Origin: Chromatiales bacterium
Lineage (GTDB): Bacteria; Pseudomonadota; Gammaproteobacteria; JAGRCI01
DNA length: 24,017 nt
Assembly: GCA_020445565.1 (NCBI GenBank)
Contig: JAGRGI010000157.1
Span: forward strand, 1 to 24,017
Direction of reading: 5' to 3'
Numbering within the stretch: the stretch's first letter is position 1; each line of letters opens with the position of its first letter. This document shows positions 4,903-23,678 of the stretch, piece after piece. Below the pieces are notes generated by a model, which was not told where the DNA came from, ran no database searches, and saw only the letters and a list, made by a program, of their open reading frames with translations. Made by a program: the position numbers and the translations under genes.

Positions 4903-4975
4903 CGCGCTGTAGCTCAGTCGGGTAGAGCAACTGGTTCATCACCAGTGGACGAGGGTTCGAGTCCCTCCACCGCAC
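4903..4975 (+). pseudogene. tRNA-like element with CAT anticodon, probable degenerate tRNA (pseudo-tRNA or att remnant)
   Basis: Cloverleaf readable: D arm GCTC/GAGC, perfect anticodon stem ACTGG/CCAGT with loop TTCATCA, perfect T arm GAGGG-TTCGAGT-CCCTC. Defects: the acceptor stem has two mismatches (C1-A72, C5-C68), position 37 is a pyrimidine, and no CCA is encoded. A second isolated T-arm-like fragment (CGGGGTTCGACTCCCCACC) lies at ~5001-5022. Confidence 0.45.
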
Positions 4976-5288
4976 CTCTGGAAAAGGTCTGCAAAACCTC
5001 GGGGTTCGACTCCCCACCTAAACGGCTGGCGACCGTCAAAGCGCCTGGACATGCCCCGGCCGGGGACACCTCACGAGGGAAGAGCCGGCAGCATCGATTC
5101 CGCTTCGTACCGGAACCGCCCCAAACCCGAGCCGACTGGCGAGGGTGATCGTTGTGACAATAGCAGGATGCACGCCGACGACAGGATGTCGGCTCACACG
5201 ACTCCCGAACCGGGTCCGCCGGGCTTGTGCCCTACGGTCCGCGGATCGGTGCGGGGCATGTACACCCCAACAAGAAAGGAGAAGACAG

Positions 5289-11976: not shown

Positions 11977-12273
11977 ATGACGACCCGAAAGAAGTACTCG
12001 AAAGAATTCAAGCTGGACGCTGTGAGCCTGGTCCTGGACCAGGGCTATACGCGCAGAGAGCCGGCCAAGAGCCTGGACGTCAATGAGCAGATGCTCGGTC
12101 GTTGGGTGAAAGAGCACCGGAACAGCGAGGATGGCCAGGCGTTCCGAGGCAATGGCAAGTTGACCCCGGAACAAGAGGAAATCAAAAGGCTGAAGGCGCA
12201 GAACAAGCGCCTTCAGATGGAGAGGGACATCCTAAAAAAAGCGACGGCATTCTTTGCAGCAGAAACGAAGTGA
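11977..12273 (+). CDS. IS3-family transposase OrfA (HTH/leucine-zipper part)
   Basis: MTTRKKYSKEFKLDAVSLV...LKAQNKRLQMERDILKKATAFFA, typical IS3 OrfA ending at the slippery A7G (12234-12241). Confidence 0.85.
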   Translation: MTTRKKYSKEFKLDAVSLVLDQGYTRREPAKSLDVNEQMLGRWVKEHRNSEDGQAFRGNGKLTPEQEEIKRLKAQNKRLQMERDILKKATAFFAAETK

Positions 12274-13147
12274 AATACGCGTTCATCACCCAACACAAGA
12301 ATGCCTACCCGATCAGCCTGCAGTGCCAGGTTTTGGGTGTCAGCCGAAACGGCTATTACCAGCACCGGAAGAACCACGAGGGCAAACCGGAAAACCCGAA
12401 TCACCAGGAGATGATCGAGTGGGTCCAGGATATCGCGAAGAGTTCGGGCGACACCTATGGGAGTCGCCGCATGAAGAAGGCGCTGAATGTGCTGGGCTAC
12501 CCAGTGAGTCGCGGAAAAGCCCGGAAACTGATGCGAGAAGCAAAGGTGCAGGTGCGCCACCGCAAGAAATACAAGGTGACGACGAACAGCAATCACAAGC
12601 AACCGGTTTTGAAAACCTGGTCAAGCGTGATTTCGACATCGACCGGCCGGACCAAGTGTATGCTGCCGATATCACCTACGTCTGGACCCAGGAGGGCTGG
12701 CTCTATCTGGCCGTGGTGATCGACCTGTGCACCCGCAAGGTGGTGGGCTGGAGTATGAGTTCCAGGATGAAGACGCAGCTGGTCTGTGATGCCTTACAGA
12801 TGGCGATCTGGCGTCGCCAGCCCAAGGCGGGACTGATCCACCATTCGGATCGCGGCTCACAGTACGCGAGCAAGGCATTCCGGCGGCTACTGAAGGCTCA
12901 CGGCATTGAGGGCAGTATGAGCCGCAAGGGCGACTGCTGGGACAATGCTGTCGTGGAGAGTTTCTTCGGCACGCTGAAGCAGGAGCGCGTGCAGTGGCGG
13001 AACTACCAGTCCCGCTACGAGGCCCAGCAGGACATCCTGGATTACATCTCGATGTTCTACAACAGTCGCCGCCTGCATTCACACCTGGGCTACATGAGTC
13101 CTAACGACTTTGAACGGCAACTGACAGAGACGAAAAAAGCGGCTTAA
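12234..13147 (+). pseudogene. IS3-family transposase OrfB (DDE integrase core) requiring the programmed -1 frameshift plus one additional frame break
   Basis: After a -1 slip at A7G, the frame-0 reading gives KKSDGILCSRNEVKYAFITQHKNAYPISLQCQVLGVSRNGYY...TTNSNHKQPV (IS3 OrfB N-terminus). The conserved continuation ENLVKRDF...ADITYV...DLCTRKVVGW...HHSDRGSQYAS...DNAVVESFF is in the +2 frame from ~12611. This implies a 1-nt deletion (or a homopolymer sequencing error) in the T-run GTTTTG at ~12606-12611. The ORF-track entries 12102..12719 and 12254..13147 are the two pieces. Confidence 0.6.
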
Positions 13148-13881: not shown

Positions 13882-15288
13882 ATGCTAACTTTGACTAAAT
13901 TTTCAGTTGAAACACCGATGAAGATCCCCCAAACACCACCTTCCTGGCAGCTGCTTTTATTGGAAACAGAGAACCTCCAACCGATCCTGGAGCTAGATCC
14001 GTTGGTGGGGGGGTGCTATCTGCACTGGGACGAGTTACGGCACCGCACTCCCCCGGAAGGTTTGTCGCATGAGGCATGGTGGACGGGGGTACGATTCGCC
14101 AGAGAGGGTATGTTGCGATCGCTTCCATTCCAGGACAAGCATGGTAAACCCATCCGGTTTGGTGTGCCGGATCCCGTGCTACGCAGTCTGCACGCCATTG
14201 ATCAGCGGGCGGCGGGCAATGTAGAAATGGCATCGCCTATTGTCTCAGGTGACGACCGGAACCGCTATCTGGTGAGCTCTCTTATTGAGGAAGCAATAAC
14301 GTCCAGTCAGCTGGAAGGCGCTGCGACGACGCGCGAACAGGCCAAAGCGATGCTGCGTAGCGGTCGCCAACCTCGCGACCGGTCGGAGCGAATGATTCTG
14401 AACAACTATCACGCCATGGAGGCGATTAGGGACATCCGCGACCGGCAATTGACACCGCAACTGGTCTACGAATTGCATCGAATTGTTACTGAAGGGACAC
14501 TGGACGATCCCAGCGCAGCAGGGCGGTTGCGAAAACCAGACGAGCGGGTCAATGTCGTAACTTCGGACCACGCGACCATACTCCATCAACCACCAGACGC
14601 AACGTCGCTTCCACAGCGAATGGATGACCTTTGTCGCTTTGCCAACGCGGATGCTGCTGCCGAAGAGGCGTTCGTACATCCCGTCATTCGCGCCATCCTG
14701 CTGCATTACATGCTGGGCTACGATCACCCCTTCGTGGACGGTAACGGGCGAACTGCTCGCGCGTTGGTTTACTGGAGCCTAGCGCGCTCCCGCTATTGGC
14801 TGATGGAGTATGTTTCTATTTCGAGACTCCTGAAATTGGCACCTGCGAAGTACGCACGCGCATACCTGCATACCGAGACAGATGGCAATGACACAACCTA
14901 TTTCATCATTCATCAACTGGACGTCATTGAACACGCTATCAGCGCGCTGCATGAATACTTGGACCGGAAGATAGCAGAAGAACGAAATGCAGAAGCCCTG
15001 TTGCGGCATACGCCACATTTGTCAGACCAACTAAACCATCGTCAGGTAGCTCTGCTGACGCACGCATTGAGGCATGCCCAACATGGCTATACAGTGGAAA
15101 GCCACAAGCGTTCACACCGGGTCACCCACCAAACTGCGCGAACCGATCTGCAACAACTAATGGATCTGGGCTTACTGGACAAGGGGAAGCGCGGGCGTGC
15201 TTTTGTCTTCTATGCGCCGGATGACTTGAGAATGCGTATTGAGCAAGCAGCTAGTTCAACAGCAAGTCGGCATATTCATGCTCCCTAG
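13882..15288 (+). CDS. Fic-family protein (AMPylation-type Fic core with N-terminal inhibitory helix and C-terminal winged-HTH)
   Basis: Canonical Fic motif HPFVDGNGRTAR. Upstream SSQLEG fits the autoinhibitory (S/T)xxxE(G/N) motif. ~470 aa with a C-terminal DNA-binding-like tail. Alternative start ATG 13918 (MKIPQ...). Local GC is clearly lower than in the surrounding genes. Confidence 0.85.
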   Translation: MLTLTKFSVETPMKIPQTPPSWQLLLLETENLQPILELDPLVGGCYLHWDELRHRTPPEGLSHEAWWTGVRFAREGMLRSLPFQDKHGKPIRFGVPDPVLRSLHAIDQRAAGNVEMASPIVSGDDRNRYLVSSLIEEAITSSQLEGAATTREQAKAMLRSGRQPRDRSERMILNNYHAMEAIRDIRDRQLTPQLVYELHRIVTEGTLDDPSAAGRLRKPDERVNVVTSDHATILHQPPDATSLPQRMDDLCRFANADAAAEEAFVHPVIRAILLHYMLGYDHPFVDGNGRTARALVYWSLARSRYWLMEYVSISRLLKLAPAKYARAYLHTETDGNDTTYFIIHQLDVIEHAISALHEYLDRKIAEERNAEALLRHTPHLSDQLNHRQVALLTHALRHAQHGYTVESHKRSHRVTHQTARTDLQQLMDLGLLDKGKRGRAFVFYAPDDLRMRIEQAASSTASRHIHAP

Positions 15289-15392
15289 AGTATACGAATG
15301 CAGCGAATTAGTGATCGCCCGATTTGCGCATTCGTAAACGCCCCTCCTCAGCTGCAACACACACGCCGAGTGAGATTGAACCCGCCTCATAC

Positions 15393-15418
15393 AAGCCCGC
15401 CGCTGTGCGGACTTTTTC
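15393..15418 (+). terminator. rho-independent terminator, near-identical copy of the hairpin at 23414
   Basis: AAGCCCGC-CGCTGT-GCGGACTTTTTCGTG versus AAGCCCGC-CGCTGT-GCGGGCTTTTTCGTG at 23414-23441. Confidence 0.55.
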
Positions 15419-15533
15419 GTGCCGGCAGGGGGCCGGGCCGGATTCAGAAAATTTGCTTACACAGGCGCTTACATTGCGCCAGAACCGGCCGCATTCACGC
15501 CGGCCGAAATCCATGTAATTTATTGTTTTTATT

Positions 15534-15582
15534 TGGTAGGCCCGGCAGGACTTGAACCTGCGACCAAGGGATTATGAGTCCC
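15534..15582 (-). repeat. 49-nt direct repeat of the 3' part of tRNA-Ile2 (att core duplicate, distal junction of the island)
   Basis: TGGTAGGCCCGGCAGGACTtGAACCTGCGACCAAGGGATTATGAGTCCC matches 23602-23650 with one mismatch. It covers the CCA end through the anticodon stem, then the sequences diverge. Confidence 0.8.
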
Positions 15583-15630
15583 ACGCCCCCATAAACAAAA
15601 ACAGTGCTTTAGAATCCATTCTTCGTCTTG

Positions 15631-15649
15631 GGTACCAATTCAGGTACCA
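15631..15649 (+). promoter_or_regulatory. arm-type GGTACCA direct repeats next to the distal att junction (a third copy at 15753-15759 just upstream of the int start)
   Basis: GGGTACCAATTCAGGTACCATCG. The same heptamer is repeated five times at 23447-23531. Confidence 0.35.
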
Positions 15650-18739: not shown

Positions 18740-19971
18740 GCCTGGACGAACAGCACCGCCGCTTGGATCGTGTGGCGGAAAAAACGGCGCGGCTGGATTC
18801 GGATGAAACACCCAGAGCCGAACGGGCAAACGCAGCTACTACCGGCCAAGTATCCACAGGTGCGCTGCTGGATGAGGATGACGGGCCGTCGCCCCCGGCT
18901 CTCGCAAGCGAATCATGGGCCACCCTCGCGGCGCGAGAGTTTGGGCCGGTCCGCTGGATCGTCGAGGACTACCTGCCGCCGGGTGTCACGCTACTCGTCG
19001 CGCCACCCAAGGCCGGGAAGTCCTGGATGGTGCTGTCCATCATCCTCTTGGTACTGGCGCGCCGGCCCGTGTGGGGACGGCGCACCTGCGGGGGCGAGGC
19101 CCTGTACTTGGCGCTGGAGGATTCGGCGCGGCGACTCCAGGCCCGGACACGGACACTCCAGCGTATCCACGGTCTGGTGGATGACGACATCCGAGGGTTC
19201 CGACACGCGCTCGATGCGCCCCGTATGGACCGGGGTCTGGATGCGGTGCTGGTGGACCACATGGACCGCTACCCGGATACCCGCCTGGTCGTCATCGATG
19301 TGCTGGCGCGGGTCCGCCGACCGCGCAACCCCAGCGAGGGCATGTACGACTGGGACTACATGACCACCGGCGCATTCCGGGAGCTGGCCGCGCAGTACCC
19401 CGCCCTGGCCATCATCCTGGTGCACCACGCGAACAAGTCGGGGGACGATGGACTGACCGCCGTCAGCGGCACCCACGGGCTGGCAGCCGGCGCCGATAAC
19501 GTGCTCACGATCATGCGGACAGCCAACGGCCCCGAACTGCACATCCACGGGCGGGACATCGCGGACAGCGAGCCGATCCCGCTGCCCCGGGATGAGGCTG
19601 GTATGTGGACGCTGGAGTCCCGCGATAGCGCCACGGCCGCGCAGATGAGCGACACGCGGGCGTTGATTCTCGATGCGATACGGGCCGGCGCCGAAACCCC
19701 GAAGGAGATCGCGGCAGAGGCGGACCTGGCACAGACGACCGTGGACGCACAACTGCGCCGCCTGCGCAAACAGGGTGAGGTCATTCAGCCGGCGCGGGGA
19801 AGCTACGCGCTACCGCCGGATACTGATCCATACGCCCCCCGTACCTACCCCCCCCATATGGATAGTATGGAGAGTATGGGAGGTGACCATATCGCCCCGC
19901 CCGTCCATACGGTCCATACCGTCCATACGGGGGGAGGGGTAGAGGATGGTATGGACGGGGAGGCTTTCTGA
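18736..19971 (+). CDS. RepA/DnaB-like P-loop ATPase (AAA_25-type replicative helicase module) with C-terminal winged-HTH and a repeat-encoded tail
   Basis: Walker A APPKAGKS, Walker B LVVIDVLARV, LVHHANKSG. C-terminal wHTH (ILDAIRAGAETPKEIAAEADLAQTTVDAQLRRLRKQGEV). The tail ...MDSMESMGGD...VHTVHTVHTGG is dictated by DNA iterons. Start taken at ATG 18736 (ATGA coupling). Confidence 0.75.
   Translation: MSLDEQHRRLDRVAEKTARLDSDETPRAERANAATTGQVSTGALLDEDDGPSPPALASESWATLAAREFGPVRWIVEDYLPPGVTLLVAPPKAGKSWMVLSIILLVLARRPVWGRRTCGGEALYLALEDSARRLQARTRTLQRIHGLVDDDIRGFRHALDAPRMDRGLDAVLVDHMDRYPDTRLVVIDVLARVRRPRNPSEGMYDWDYMTTGAFRELAAQYPALAIILVHHANKSGDDGLTAVSGTHGLAAGADNVLTIMRTANGPELHIHGRDIADSEPIPLPRDEAGMWTLESRDSATAAQMSDTRALILDAIRAGAETPKEIAAEADLAQTTVDAQLRRLRKQGEVIQPARGSYALPPDTDPYAPRTYPPHMDSMESMGGDHIAPPVHTVHTVHTGGGVEDGMDGEAF
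19828..19928 (+). repeat. inverted arrays of 9-bp-period iterons inside the helicase 3' end; candidate replication origin
   Basis: TCCATACG (19828), then ATATGGATA / GTATGGAGA / GTATGGGAG (19856-19880), a degenerate CCATATCG, then GTCCATACG / GTCCATACC / GTCCATACG (19903-19929). That is three direct repeats facing three inverted copies of the same 7-mer. Confidence 0.6.
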
Positions 19972-20550: not shown

Positions 20551-21039
20551 ATGTTCGAGTGCCTGAACAAGCCGGCCACGCAACGCGAGTTCGGCGACCT
20601 GATCGGCATCGCAAAACAGAACGTCTCCAAGGCATTCCTGGCGGGCGCCCTGCCGCCCGGCGGGACCCTGCGGGACTGGTTGCTGGCCTATTGCGACCGG
20701 TTACGGGGTGTCGCCGACGTGCGGGGCGGCGACGACCAGCGGGCGTTGACTCGCGCCCGGACGGAACTGGCTCTGACCGACGCCGAGGGAAAACGGCGCG
20801 CCCTGCTCCGCGAGGCCGACCGCCTGGCGGAGGTGGAATGGGTGCGGGAGGCCCTGGACGGCTGGGAGTCCGTCGGGCTGGCCTCCCTCGCAAAAGCTGA
20901 AGAGCGGATGGCTGCCGAACTGGCATCGCGAGGTGTCGAGGATGTCGGGTTCATCCGTGAGGCCCTGCGGGCGGTCACCGAAGAACTGGCAACACGCCCG
21001 GCGCCCCTCCAACGCACGCGAGAGGAGCCCGCGCCATGA
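20551..21039 (+). CDS. N-terminal HTH protein with charged coiled-coil C-terminus; possibly phage small-terminase-like (Nu1-type) or a regulator
   Basis: GGAGG 7 nt upstream. N-terminus NKPATQREFGDLIGIAKQNVSKAFLAGALPPGG is an HTH. Ala/Arg/Glu-rich helical remainder. The terminase assignment is by architecture only. Confidence 0.5.
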   Translation: MFECLNKPATQREFGDLIGIAKQNVSKAFLAGALPPGGTLRDWLLAYCDRLRGVADVRGGDDQRALTRARTELALTDAEGKRRALLREADRLAEVEWVREALDGWESVGLASLAKAEERMAAELASRGVEDVGFIREALRAVTEELATRPAPLQRTREEPAP

Positions 21040-21974: not shown

Positions 21975-21988
21975 CGGCGCTTGGCGCC

Positions 21989-22075
21989 AACGTTTAAGGC
22001 GAGCCGCGCGGGGGCTCCCGTCCCTCAACACCTCCGGGGGCGGGAGGCAGCCACCAGCCGTGCGGCTCGCCGCCT
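21989..22075 (+). repeat. structured hairpin repeat unit 1 (candidate ncRNA or protein-binding hairpin)
   Basis: AACGTTTAAGGCGAG CCGCGCGG ... loop CAACACCTCC ... CCACCAGCCGTGCGGCTCGCCGCCT. 14-bp outer stem GGCGAGCCGCGCGG / CCGTGCGGCTCGCC (one G-U pair) plus an inner stem. Confidence 0.5.
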
Positions 22076-22107
22076 ATCCCACGTGATGTGCAATTCTGCG
22101 CATCGCA

Positions 22108-22193
22108 AACGTTTAGGCGAGTTGCGCGGGGTCACTACCCGCAGTAACACCTCCCGGAGTGGTGACCGCCACCAGCCGCGCAACTCGCCGCCT
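22108..22193 (+). repeat. structured hairpin repeat unit 2 (diverged copy with compensatory stem changes)
   Basis: AACGTTTAGGCGAG TTGCGCGG ... inner stem GGTCAC/GTGACC ... loop TAACACCTCC ... CCACCAGCCGCGCAACTCGCCGCCT. The CC to TT change in the 5' arm is matched by GG to AA in the 3' arm. Confidence 0.5.
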
Positions 22194-22222
22194 CTTCCAT
22201 GCCGGTTTCCAGGGTTTACCCC

Positions 22223-22249
22223 TGCGATCGTTGCGATTCTTGCGATCAT
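22223..22249 (+). repeat. three tandem 9-bp iterons (TGCGATCGT / TGCGATTCT / TGCGATCAT) overlapping a -35 box
   Basis: Read directly from the sequence. Confidence 0.5.
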
Positions 22250-22268
22250 TGGGGACCTGGCGTACTCT
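22240..22268 (+). promoter_or_regulatory. putative sigma70 promoter (TTGCGA - 17 nt - TACTCT)
   Basis: -35 at 22240-22245 lies inside the third iteron. -10 at 22263-22268. Confidence 0.4.
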
Positions 22269-22274
22269 CAAGCT

Positions 22275-22349
22275 GTCCCCGACGCATCGGGGCCGGGATT
22301 ACCACCCCGGTTCAGACCAGAAGGCCGAAACCGCTTTGGCGGTTTTTTC
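22275..22349 (+). ncRNA. candidate ~75-nt sRNA or attenuator (promoter, two hairpins, intrinsic terminator)
   Basis: Hairpins CCCCGACGCATCGGGG and CCGGGATTACCACCCCGG, then the terminator AACCGC-TTTG-GCGGTTTTTT. Followed by a further structured leader (GGCCGTCTTCGGACGGGCC with a UUCG tetraloop, and a repeated GATTACCACC motif) before the next CDS. Confidence 0.3.
22327..22349 (+). terminator. rho-independent terminator
   Basis: AACCGC-TTTG-GCGGTT followed by TTTTTT. Confidence 0.55.
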
Positions 22350-22502
22350 GTGCTCGCCGTTTATTTGGCGGGACGTGTGGGGCCGTCTTCGGACGGGCCG
22401 GCATCCTTCTGGGCCGGTTGTGGTAACCCCGCACGGACCGCCACCCTTCCCGATTACCACCGGGCGTGGCGGTTACACTTCAACCAGAAGGAGACCGACA
22501 AC

Positions 22503-22961
22503 ATGACCCAGCAGTCATACCGTATCACCGGCCGCGAACCCCTGGCCTACAGACTGACCAAGGACCGCCACGGCAACCCGCTGGCCACGATTGAAAACTT
22601 CCCCGGTTTGCACGCGGACCTGACGCCAGACCAATTGCGGGACTTTGCGCTGGCACTGACCGCAATCAGCTACGAAAGCCAGCACCCGGAAACGCACCTG
22701 GGTTCCGTGCCGCTCACGCGGGATGTGCTGATCGAAGCCACCAACTATGCTGACATTGGGCAATCCGTTTTCTCGCTGCTGGGTGCGTTGTTTACCGCGA
22801 TCCGTGCGGACCTTCCAGACTACTCGCAGGGCAACAAGTTGGCAGCCATCGGGGAAGATAGGTGCGAAGCGTATTGCGCTGTTTTCGAAGGGCAATCGGA
22901 GACACTAACCGCCGCACTGAAAGCCGCGTCAAAGCCGCAACGGGAGGGCGAAGCGCGGTGA
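22503..22961 (+). CDS. hypothetical protein (152 aa)
   Basis: ATG at 22503 with AAGGAG 9 nt upstream. The upstream part of ORF 21981..22961 is the structured non-coding region. A perfect hairpin GATACCG-agatcc-CGGTATC overlaps the stop. Confidence 0.55.
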   Translation: MTQQSYRITGREPLAYRLTKDRHGNPLATIENFPGLHADLTPDQLRDFALALTAISYESQHPETHLGSVPLTRDVLIEATNYADIGQSVFSLLGALFTAIRADLPDYSQGNKLAAIGEDRCEAYCAVFEGQSETLTAALKAASKPQREGEAR

Positions 22962-23157: not shown

Positions 23158-23358
23158 ATGGCCTTGGGCTGGATCTTCATAGCGCTTTACGTCGCCACCG
23201 CGATTTCCCTGTGGTGGCTCGCTCACCCGTTGGTGACGGTTGTAATGCTGGCCCTACTGGTTCGCTTCATCTACCGCGTGGTCACCGGCAAGGCGGACAT
23301 GCGCACGGGCGGGGGGACTTGGCTGAACGCCTGGACCTATCGGTCGCCCGAAAGGTAG
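23158..23358 (+). CDS. small two-TM membrane protein (66 aa)
   Basis: ATG at 23158 with GGGAGA 10 nt upstream. Two hydrophobic helices (LGWIFIALYVATAISLWWLA; LVTVVMLALLVRFIY). Preceded by inverted repeats GGCCCCAAAGC...GCTTTGGGGCC (23029-23060). Confidence 0.5.
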   Translation: MALGWIFIALYVATAISLWWLAHPLVTVVMLALLVRFIYRVVTGKADMRTGGGTWLNAWTYRSPER

Positions 23359-23400: not shown

Positions 23401-23413
23401 GAATCCAACCAAC

Positions 23414-23438
23414 AAGCCCGCCGCTGTGCGGGCTTTTT
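23414..23438 (+). terminator. rho-independent terminator (hairpin family member shared with 15393, 13356 and 13688)
   Basis: AAGCCCGC-CGCTGT-GCGGGCTTTTT. Confidence 0.55.
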
Positions 23439-23446
23439 CGTGGTCG

Positions 23447-23538
23447 GGTACCAGTAGGTACCACTTCAGGAAACGCGACTACCAAGCCTGCGCCGGTAGC
23501 CGGGTACCAGCGGGTACCAATTTGGGTACCACTTGAGG
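23447..23538 (+). promoter_or_regulatory. five GGTACCA arm-type direct repeats between the island genes and the tRNA att site (putative integrase/Xis arm-binding sites)
   Basis: GGTACCA at 23447, 23457, 23503, 23513 and 23525. Two occur as GGTACCACTT(C/G)AGG. Confidence 0.4.
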
Positions 23539-23601
23539 GCGCGTTTCAGGCGAAATGCGGCTAATCCATGCGCCTTGATGCGAGGCAAGTTGTTGATTAT
23601 A

Positions 23602-23678
<77 letters not shown>

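Follow-up and report, generated by a model that had tools for sequence, protein, structure and literature searches.

The island and its last two genes

The window, the whole 24,017-nt stretch of Chromatiales DNA analysed here, contains two copies of a 54-nt att-like direct repeat (15529-15582 and 23597-23650) corresponding to the 3′ part of a tRNA-Met gene on the minus strand (23602-23678). Set 8,068 bp apart, the repeats bound an 8,068-bp (8.07-kb) element that holds, in order, an integrase, orf280, a 77-aa Xis-like ORF, a CHC2 zinc-finger protein, an AAA_25 protein with a C-terminal wHTH domain, orf109, a TerS-like protein, orf114, orf188, the RNA module examined in this study, ORF152, ORF66 and a terminator. 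Pfam and PHROG scans of the island recognised only the integrase, the CHC2 zinc finger, the AAA_25/wHTH protein and the TerS-like protein, the last as a phrog_57 match (E 1.3e-6). These scans found no repressor gene and none of the P4 hallmark families (psu, sid, delta, epsilon, alpha), and the island does not have the P4 gene set of alpha primase-helicase, epsilon, delta, psu, sid and cII. The original prediction had named an HTH protein at 20551 as a possible DNA-binding regulator, but this is the protein that resembles a small terminase subunit rather than a repressor. With att repeats in tRNA-Met, an integrase, a primase zinc finger, AAA_25 and a TerS-like protein, the gene set looks PICI-like, and judged by its sequence the carrier is a putative integrated, satellite-like element of a Chromatiales bacterium.

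Several metagenomes yielded assemblies of the same element, and its 303-nt regulatory region (22200-22502) was identical in nine of the ten metagenome contigs retrieved. One 8,097-bp contig (L002) was considered as an excised circle and rejected, as its ends are the att repeat at a branch of the assembly graph, and a 1052-aa match (P0002) was set aside as a low-complexity repeat protein. The nearest relative of the island integrase is 57% identical and comes from a Thiocapsa MAG; a C4 RNA was absent from all seven integrase-related loci scanned in other genomes.

ORF152 (152 aa, 22503..22961, plus strand) is the first ORF after the C4 RNA described below, and the small orphan ORF66 (66 aa, 23158..23358, plus strand) is probably co-transcribed with it. 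An intrinsic terminator recognised in the sequence at 23412..23442 on the same strand (repeat D2), which also makes up the terminator part of chance matches to Trp_leader, closes the operon. A 326-aa ORF (21981-22961) that runs in frame through the whole leader was rejected as the gene because homologues start at the ORF152 methionine, gene callers pick the 152-aa form, and the extension covers the RNA genes. In an index of 5.8 billion proteins ORF152 and ORF66 each matched only itself, which fits their earlier description as an orphan two-gene module, but the description is too strict for residues ~10-60 of ORF152, which have remote relatives among proteins of 50-107 aa in an exhaustive HMMER search. 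These relatives, none with an annotated function, are united by the consensus TxDRHGxPLA…NFPGLDA…LR. ORF152 gave no Pfam, PHROG or NCBIfam match, and neither protein matched the Icd-like, Ant or Derepression families; that the genes are unlike Icd, Ant and derepression proteins is a point against the immunity module that we propose. A structure model of ORF152 (pLDDT 74) has a three-stranded sheet and a helix (beta3-alpha) followed by two more helices, and fold searches with it returned weak matches only. ORF66 has two hydrophobic stretches, as judged by eye. Given its position, ORF152 is a candidate for the switch or effector gene gated by the leader.

Promoter, short RNA, C4 RNA and target sites in the leader

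Three tandem 9-bp direct repeats, TGCGATCGT / TGCGATTCT / TGCGATCAT, occupy 22223..22249 on the plus strand and overlap the -35 of a sigma-70-like promoter, as the original prediction had it. GATC is present in repeats 1 and 3. A triple 6-mer at a fixed period of 7-12 nt was rare in shuffled DNA (2.5% of Markov-shuffled 24-kb sequences), and we found no comparable tandem repeat at the promoter of the other C4 loci whose promoter regions were inspected. The repeats are a possible operator. Two more copies of the repeat core TTGCGAT in the island (20608, 22102, minus strand) showed no clear pattern and were not counted as further repeats. The promoter itself (22240..22268, plus strand) consists of TTGCGA at 22240-22245 and TACTCT at 22263-22268, 17 nt apart, and lies where it had been predicted. 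It agrees with the consensus at just 7 of 12 positions, which is a point against the module, and a generic promoter scan passed over it; both hexamers stand at the positions expected from the C4 family. Transcription is predicted to start near 22275.

A fold computed on 22275-22352 bears out the two hairpins and the intrinsic terminator that had been proposed for the transcript: hairpin 1 at 22277-22292, hairpin 2 at 22293-22310 and the terminator at 22327-22348, with its stem at 22327-22334/22339-22346 and a T-run at 22343-22348. A putative RNA of ~72-75 nt (22275..22348, plus strand) is thereby delimited. In a permissive Rfam scan (1.7-kb search) the isrK family (RF01394) matched 22275-22349, exactly the span of this terminator-bounded ~75-nt RNA, with 40 bits (E 9.5e-7; threshold 50), and the c4-a1b1 family (RF03163) matched 22262-22313 with 18.9 bits against a threshold of 46.7. 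Both scores are below threshold and thus speak against the module. However, the isrK threshold excludes genuine homologues, because the upstream region of phage P1 itself scores just 35 bits (51 bits on c4-a1b1). The anatomy is that of IsrK: a 5′ hairpin, a second hairpin with site a1 (see below) in its loop, a single-stranded site b1 that ends 2 nt before the terminator stem, and a Rho-independent terminator, all directly upstream of C4. On this fold and family match, the short terminated RNA is an IsrK/seqA-like a1b1 element. It had been suggested that it is either an sRNA or an attenuator; by analogy with its relatives it would act in both ways, as an sRNA and in the manner of an attenuator.

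The organising element of the leader, by family match and fold, is a C4 antisense RNA of 88 nt (22361..22448, plus strand). An Rfam scan of the window matched RF01695 over model positions 1-87 of 87 with 70.5 bits (threshold 45), where P1's own C4 scores 68.8 bits. The cmscan alignment and an independent minimum-energy fold (-52.4 kcal/mol, z -4.2 for C4 alone) both contain the closing stem, tetraloop hairpin, second hairpin and 3′ bulge of the family. A UUCG hairpin is indeed present at 22383-22396 on the plus strand, but it is not the separate leader hairpin it had been taken for; it is an arm of the C4 RNA. In the second hairpin (22397-22418, plus strand) the loop of 12 nt contains b′, CCUUCUGG (22405-22412), which is complementary to CCAGAAGG, and the 3′ bulge holds a′, GUGGUAA (22420-22426), the complement of TTACCAC. 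Two features count against the module here, as the b′ loop is partly self-paired in the minimum-energy fold and the a′ pairing extends over just 7 bp. The annotated ends of P1 C4 place the predicted mature RNA, by homology, at ~22367-22445, and the sequence has the same prerequisites for processing as P1, the stem GGCGGG/CCGCC followed by ACC. In searches for a C4 of the same specificity or a helper phage, the exact a′/b′ specificity string had no match in 185,579 reference genomes (GTDB), a relaxed a′/b′ string had none in IMG/VR, and a C4 backbone pattern had none in JGI metagenomes; two JGI matches to the relaxed string were not C4 RNAs.

Sites complementary to both C4 segments occur twice in the leader. 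We follow the P1 naming, with a for the 7-nt site in a hairpin loop and b for the 8-nt site at the ribosome-binding site. The sequence GATTACCACC is duplicated at 22297-22306 and 22452-22461; the two copies had been pointed out before as repeats ahead of the ribosome-binding site and are there, but they are not generic, since their core TTACCAC is the a site for the C4 bulge. On the plus strand, a1 lies at 22299..22305 and a2 at 22454..22460, and in the fold both copies are held in the loops of small hairpins, that of a2 spanning 22449-22464. A second duplication, ACCAGAAGG at 22316-22324 and 22483-22491, does not figure in the original prediction and contains the b sites: b1, CCAGAAGG (22317..22324, plus strand), is complementary to the C4 loop, and b2, CCAGAAGGA (22484..22492, plus strand), is a 9-nt match overlapping the Shine-Dalgarno GGAG of ORF152 (22489-22492, plus strand), which lies 11 nt before the ATG at 22503. 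A 7-nt and a 9-nt target are thus found downstream of C4 over the ribosome-binding site, with a second copy of the pair upstream. The 24-kb window has three copies of the composite TTACCAC-N(5-35)-CCAGAAGG, two of them on the plus strand (22299-22324 and 22454-22491) and one on the minus strand inside the C4 RNA itself, against none in 100 shuffles. Their complementarity identifies the copies of GATTACCACC and ACCAGAAGG as a1/b1 and a2/b2, the sites with which the C4 bulge and loop would pair.

Co-variation among C4 loci and comparison with known immunity regions

A C4-core pattern search of IMG/VR returned at least 120 stretches, with 64 distinct C4 sequences among the matches listed. The loop sequences of these 64 RNAs are very diverse. 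For the hairpin loop, a perfectly complementary stretch of at least 7 nt within its own locus was present upstream in 83% and downstream in 81% of the 64 loci, and for the bulge upstream in 95% and downstream in 97%; with loops swapped between loci such complements turned up in 6-11% only. Downstream sites lie at fixed offsets after C4, about +4 to +10 and +35 to +41 (+8 and +38 in the window), and GGA is the usual ending of the family's b2 sites. The first ORF starts 40-60 nt after C4, mostly 45-60 nt, compared to 55 nt in the window. A terminator with a perfect stem stands between b1 and C4 in 56/64 loci, and the layout of the short RNA recurs in 56/64 as well. Among the 61 loci with an identifiable a1, a -10-like hexamer [T/C]ANNNT ends 29-32 nt before a1 in 60 and is preceded 16-18 nt further upstream by TTG in 56; the window has both the TTG and the hexamer. 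An isrK-like match directly upstream of C4 was found in P1, phage P88 and the viral loci L013, L019, L026 and L065. The co-variation of loops and sites, together with the shared terminator and promoter positions, indicates that promoter, short RNA, terminator, C4 and target sites form one conserved cassette, of which the window, by these sequence features, carries a canonical copy. The genes behind the cassette vary: gene calling at the 64 loci gave 62 first ORFs, of which 32 are Icd-like, 16 Derepression-family, 5 Tad2-like and 9 other, and ORF152 is unrelated to any of them.

The closest layout is that of the immI region (c4–icd–ant) of P1/P7, for which the annotated P1 record NC_005856 (P1c4/P51b, a1, b1, the 77-nt c4 RNA, a2, b2 and icd) served as reference. 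Promoter, a1, b1, a terminator-like hairpin, C4, a2, b2 over the ribosome-binding site and the first ORF follow in the same order, P1 C4 likewise pairs in two parts (a′ and b′), and at most landmarks the spacing is within 1-2 nt. From the end of the -10 to a1 there are 32 nt in P1 and 31 nt in the window, from a2 to b2 29 and 30 nt, and from the end of b2 to the start codon 11 nt in both; a2 starts at +4 from the annotated mature C4 3′ end in P1, and in the window at +6 from the end of the Rfam model or +9 from the predicted mature end. The spacer between b1 and C4 is shorter in the window (36 nt vs 66), a C1-type operator is absent with the three 9-bp direct repeats in its place, the gated genes are neither Icd-like nor Ant, and instead of a 94-kb plasmid prophage, an island of 8 kb integrated in a Chromatiales MAG carries the module.

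The immunity region of P4 (seqA–CI RNA–seqC) resembles the window in its small integrative carrier of the helper-dependent type with integrase and primase/helicase genes, and in an RNA-based immunity whose antisense RNA is processed from its own leader (predicted here) and is flanked on either side by complementary sites. The P4 RNA acts by transcription termination on the replication operon that follows it, whereas in the window the replication genes lie upstream and just ORF152 and ORF66 lie downstream. The anti-immunity locus of the phage-plasmid N15, which we liken to the window by description only, has a small RNA processed from the leader that controls downstream anti-immunity genes; Ravin et al. 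(1999, cited in PMC4488713) reportedly found that the processed CA RNA of N15 controls its antirepressor. IsrK corresponds to seqA and C4 to CI RNA, the pair being referred to as 'the IsrK-C4 immunity system' in a paper that also notes similar systems in P1, P7 and N15 (Barquist et al., PMC3632133), and seqA of P4 has been described as a structural homologue of IsrK (PMC4825925). In the isrK–STnc1160–orf45–anrP region of Gifsy-1 in Salmonella, one promoter gives a short terminated sRNA and, by terminator read-through, a longer mRNA; short IsrK activates in trans, and STnc1160 is a processed C4-like RNA downstream (PMC4825925). The window shares this arrangement in its sequence, with the processing of the C4-like RNA predicted here; control of the first ORF at its ribosome-binding site, described for Gifsy-1, is likewise predicted. 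Unlike Gifsy-1, the window lacks a small coupling ORF with an antirepressor behind it, and its isrK match of 40 bits is below the threshold of 50. Taken by sequence, the region is a new example of the known IsrK–C4 type (P1 immI / P4 seqA–CI) and not an ad hoc leader; the novelty lies in the host island, the orphan cargo ORF152/ORF66, the triple 9-bp repeat at the -35 and a pair of structured repeats upstream.

A proposed switch and its alternatives

In our view the region very likely represents an immunity module of the IsrK–C4 antisense-RNA type, carried by the 8.07-kb integrated satellite-like element. Alongside the C4 family membership, complementarities, positions and family-wide co-variation observed here, we infer transcription, processing, translational block and decoy action from characterised relatives. 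The promoter at 22240-22268 would give a transcript from near 22275, and some transcripts would end at the terminator (22327-22348) as a ~75-nt RNA with a1 in a hairpin loop and b1 single-stranded. Read-through transcripts would contain the C4 RNA, which may then be excised from the leader; in P1, RNase P generates its 5′ end. The bulge a′ and loop b′ of the excised C4 would pair with two sites of the same mRNA species, a2 (22454-22460) and b2 (22484-22492), and translation of ORF152 would be blocked because b2 overlaps the Shine-Dalgarno sequence, with ORF66 probably silenced too via polarity. The upstream a1/b1 pair could bind C4 in cis while both are still on the precursor, or in trans when it is part of the short RNA, and this pairing would titrate C4 or modulate termination, creating a switch. 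The minimum-energy fold of the read-through leader (22275-22520; -118 kcal/mol, z -4.8) has a1/b1 paired in cis with a′/b′ and resembles the inactive 'structure A' of Gifsy-1 (PMC4825925).

That fold is also what lends weight to an IsrK-type positive control as in Gifsy-1, in which the cis-paired read-through mRNA would be silent, the short RNA would activate translation of ORF152 in trans, and repression by free C4 would play a secondary part. The Gifsy-1 mechanism gives a precedent (PMC4825925), and we consider its dominance here quite possible while leaning against it: the ribosome-binding site is only loosely sequestered in the 22275-22520 fold, the Gifsy-1 study left the role of the C4-like STnc1160 undecided, and a decoy role for the short RNA equally fits the translational block proposed above. 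C4 might instead work mainly by promoting transcription termination, as in P4 and N15, by pairing with a1/b1 beside the terminator and/or with a2/b2 exposing a Rho site, with occlusion of the ribosome-binding site secondary. Pairing of P4 CI RNA with seqA and seqC gives premature termination (summarised in PMC4825925), and the placement of b1 2 nt before the terminator stem is a juxtaposition kept in 56/64 loci. Still, no terminator-like hairpin with a T-run was found between C4 and ORF152, and the overlap of b2 with the Shine-Dalgarno sequence has its exact counterpart in P1, whose record carries the annotation 'repression of icd ant translation'. We regard termination as the main mode of action as rather doubtful, although the termination and translation-block mechanisms are mutually compatible.

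A protein bound to the three 9-bp repeats could be the main gate, leaving the short RNA as an independent sRNA or simple attenuator and the rest as a generic leader with no antisense logic. Statistically the repeats stand out, and they lie across the -35; the P1 record likewise has a repressor operator, Oc4, beside the c4 promoters. We consider this reading very unlikely, since the C4 match, the paired sites and the co-variation explain the leader features without extra assumptions; moreover, the other C4 promoter regions inspected have no comparable repeats, and the Pfam and PHROG scans of the island found no repressor gene. Finally, the cargo is orphan and the promoter is weak by consensus, as would suit an inactive relic riding along with the island. 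We consider this extremely improbable, as the parts are all intact and mutually complementary, from the promoter position through a1/b1, the terminator and the full-length C4 to a2/b2 and the spacing from Shine-Dalgarno to ATG, and the region is the same in nearly all of the metagenome contigs noted above.

If the IsrK–C4 reading holds, what looked like a bespoke control leader is a standard, portable phage switch, and the main value of this work is its correct annotation. The suggestion that such RNA-level control is typical of tightly gated cargo holds for switches of the phage or satellite kind but finds no support for toxin or defence-effector cargo. The logic of the switch is legible from the sequence, as two loop sequences would set the immunity specificity and the flanking copies the targets. 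The cassette is seen here outside the enterobacterial P1/P2/P4-type elements, in a GC-rich Chromatiales island, and its unrelated cargo and PICI-like carrier support the idea of IsrK–C4 as a modular gate that can be plugged in before different genes. ORF152 and ORF66 are candidates for new switch or effector proteins.

Just upstream of the module lie two 118-nt structured repeats (twin hairpins), which are unclassified. STAXI motifs are said to have been noted near c4 RNAs by Weinberg et al. in 2010, but we rejected this assignment for the twin hairpins as no Rfam family matches them, even at E up to 10. A search for relatives with the pattern AACACCTCC-N10-20-CCACCAGCC gave 46 matches in viral contigs, all without the hairpin, where ~20 would be expected by chance on a rough estimate.

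A more ambitious reading, which we think unlikely, is that the module is the sole immunity/derepression switch of an undescribed Chromatiales satellite family, with ORF152 representing a new class of C4-gated effector and the twin repeats possibly being a co-working RNA element. ORF152 could then be, for example, a helper-derepression or anti-defence protein. The N-terminal beta3-alpha domain of ORF152 (residues ~10-60) is common to many small unannotated proteins. In other C4 loci the same slot holds Icd-like, Derepression or Tad2-like genes.

ORF152 and the genes predicted to be under C4 control

The frame of ORF152, the gene predicted to be gated by the C4 antisense RNA, remains open upstream of its start, giving an ORF of 326 codons (21981–22961, + strand) that spans the two structured repeats described below, the C4-module promoter, the IsrK-like short RNA and C4 itself. 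We judged this longer ORF to be spurious, since the gene callers and the homologues begin at 22503, and a long open frame at this location was judged to be as expected in GC-rich sequence. The remote homologue P0020 (167 aa) also aligns loosely to the C-terminal half of ORF152 (residues ~95–140), hinting that ORF152 could be a two-domain protein with a second domain that recurs elsewhere too. The C-terminal domain of P0020 matches phrog_16078, a family with no function assigned.

In the C4 loci collected from viral contigs, the first ORF after C4 contains a Tad2-like (Thoeris anti-defense 2-like, PF11195) domain in five cases (L017, L046, L068, L093 and L120), and therefore anti-defence genes may be among those controlled by C4.

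Structured repeats and iterons upstream of the C4 module

Two tandem structured repeats of ~118 nt (21985–22085 and 22104–22204, + strand) lie between orf188, the gene upstream of the RNA module, and the C4-module promoter. Each copy forms a long hairpin in which the apical loop, AACACCUCC, is conserved and the internal loop reads GCCACCAGCC; folding is better on the + strand than on the − strand. When the copies were compared with each other, the 23 predicted pairs included 6 compensatory changes and 3 G-U/G-C switches, with none broken. No Rfam family matched the repeats and no relatives were found in the viral contigs. They may represent an undescribed RNA, or a site acting at the DNA level, such as an ori or pac.

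The three iterons that follow overlap the −35 of the C4-module promoter, and the first and third each contain a GATC (22226–22229 and 22244–22247) positioned over or just upstream of the −35; in a host that has Dam, methylation could affect the promoter. Elsewhere in the window just one further triple 9-bp tandem repeat occurs, GTCCATACG x3 at 19903–19931; it is coding and translates to HTVHTVHT close to the C-terminal end of the AAA_25/wHTH protein.

Island ends, a possible neighbouring remnant and host RNA genes

Clusters of GGTACCA-type repeats are found just inside both island ends (about 15617–15640 and 23448–23540) and probably serve as arm-type sites to which the integrase or Xis binds. 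The 31-nt operon terminator at 23412–23442 has a second copy just outside attL (15391–15421), and the two copies are 8,021 apart as opposed to 8,068 for the att repeats, suggesting a remnant of a second, related element that had inserted in tandem into the tRNA-Met used by the island. Also to the left of attL are an IS3-type transposase ORF (12254–13147) and a 468-aa protein (13882–15288) that carries the Fic motif HPFVDGNGRTAR; both may be cargo of this remnant element.

In P1, RNase P is the enzyme responsible for C4 maturation. The window opens with the host's RNase P RNA gene, of which the window end leaves only the 5′ part (1–121, − strand), and holds a second tRNA-Met (CAT) gene at 4903–4976 (+ strand).
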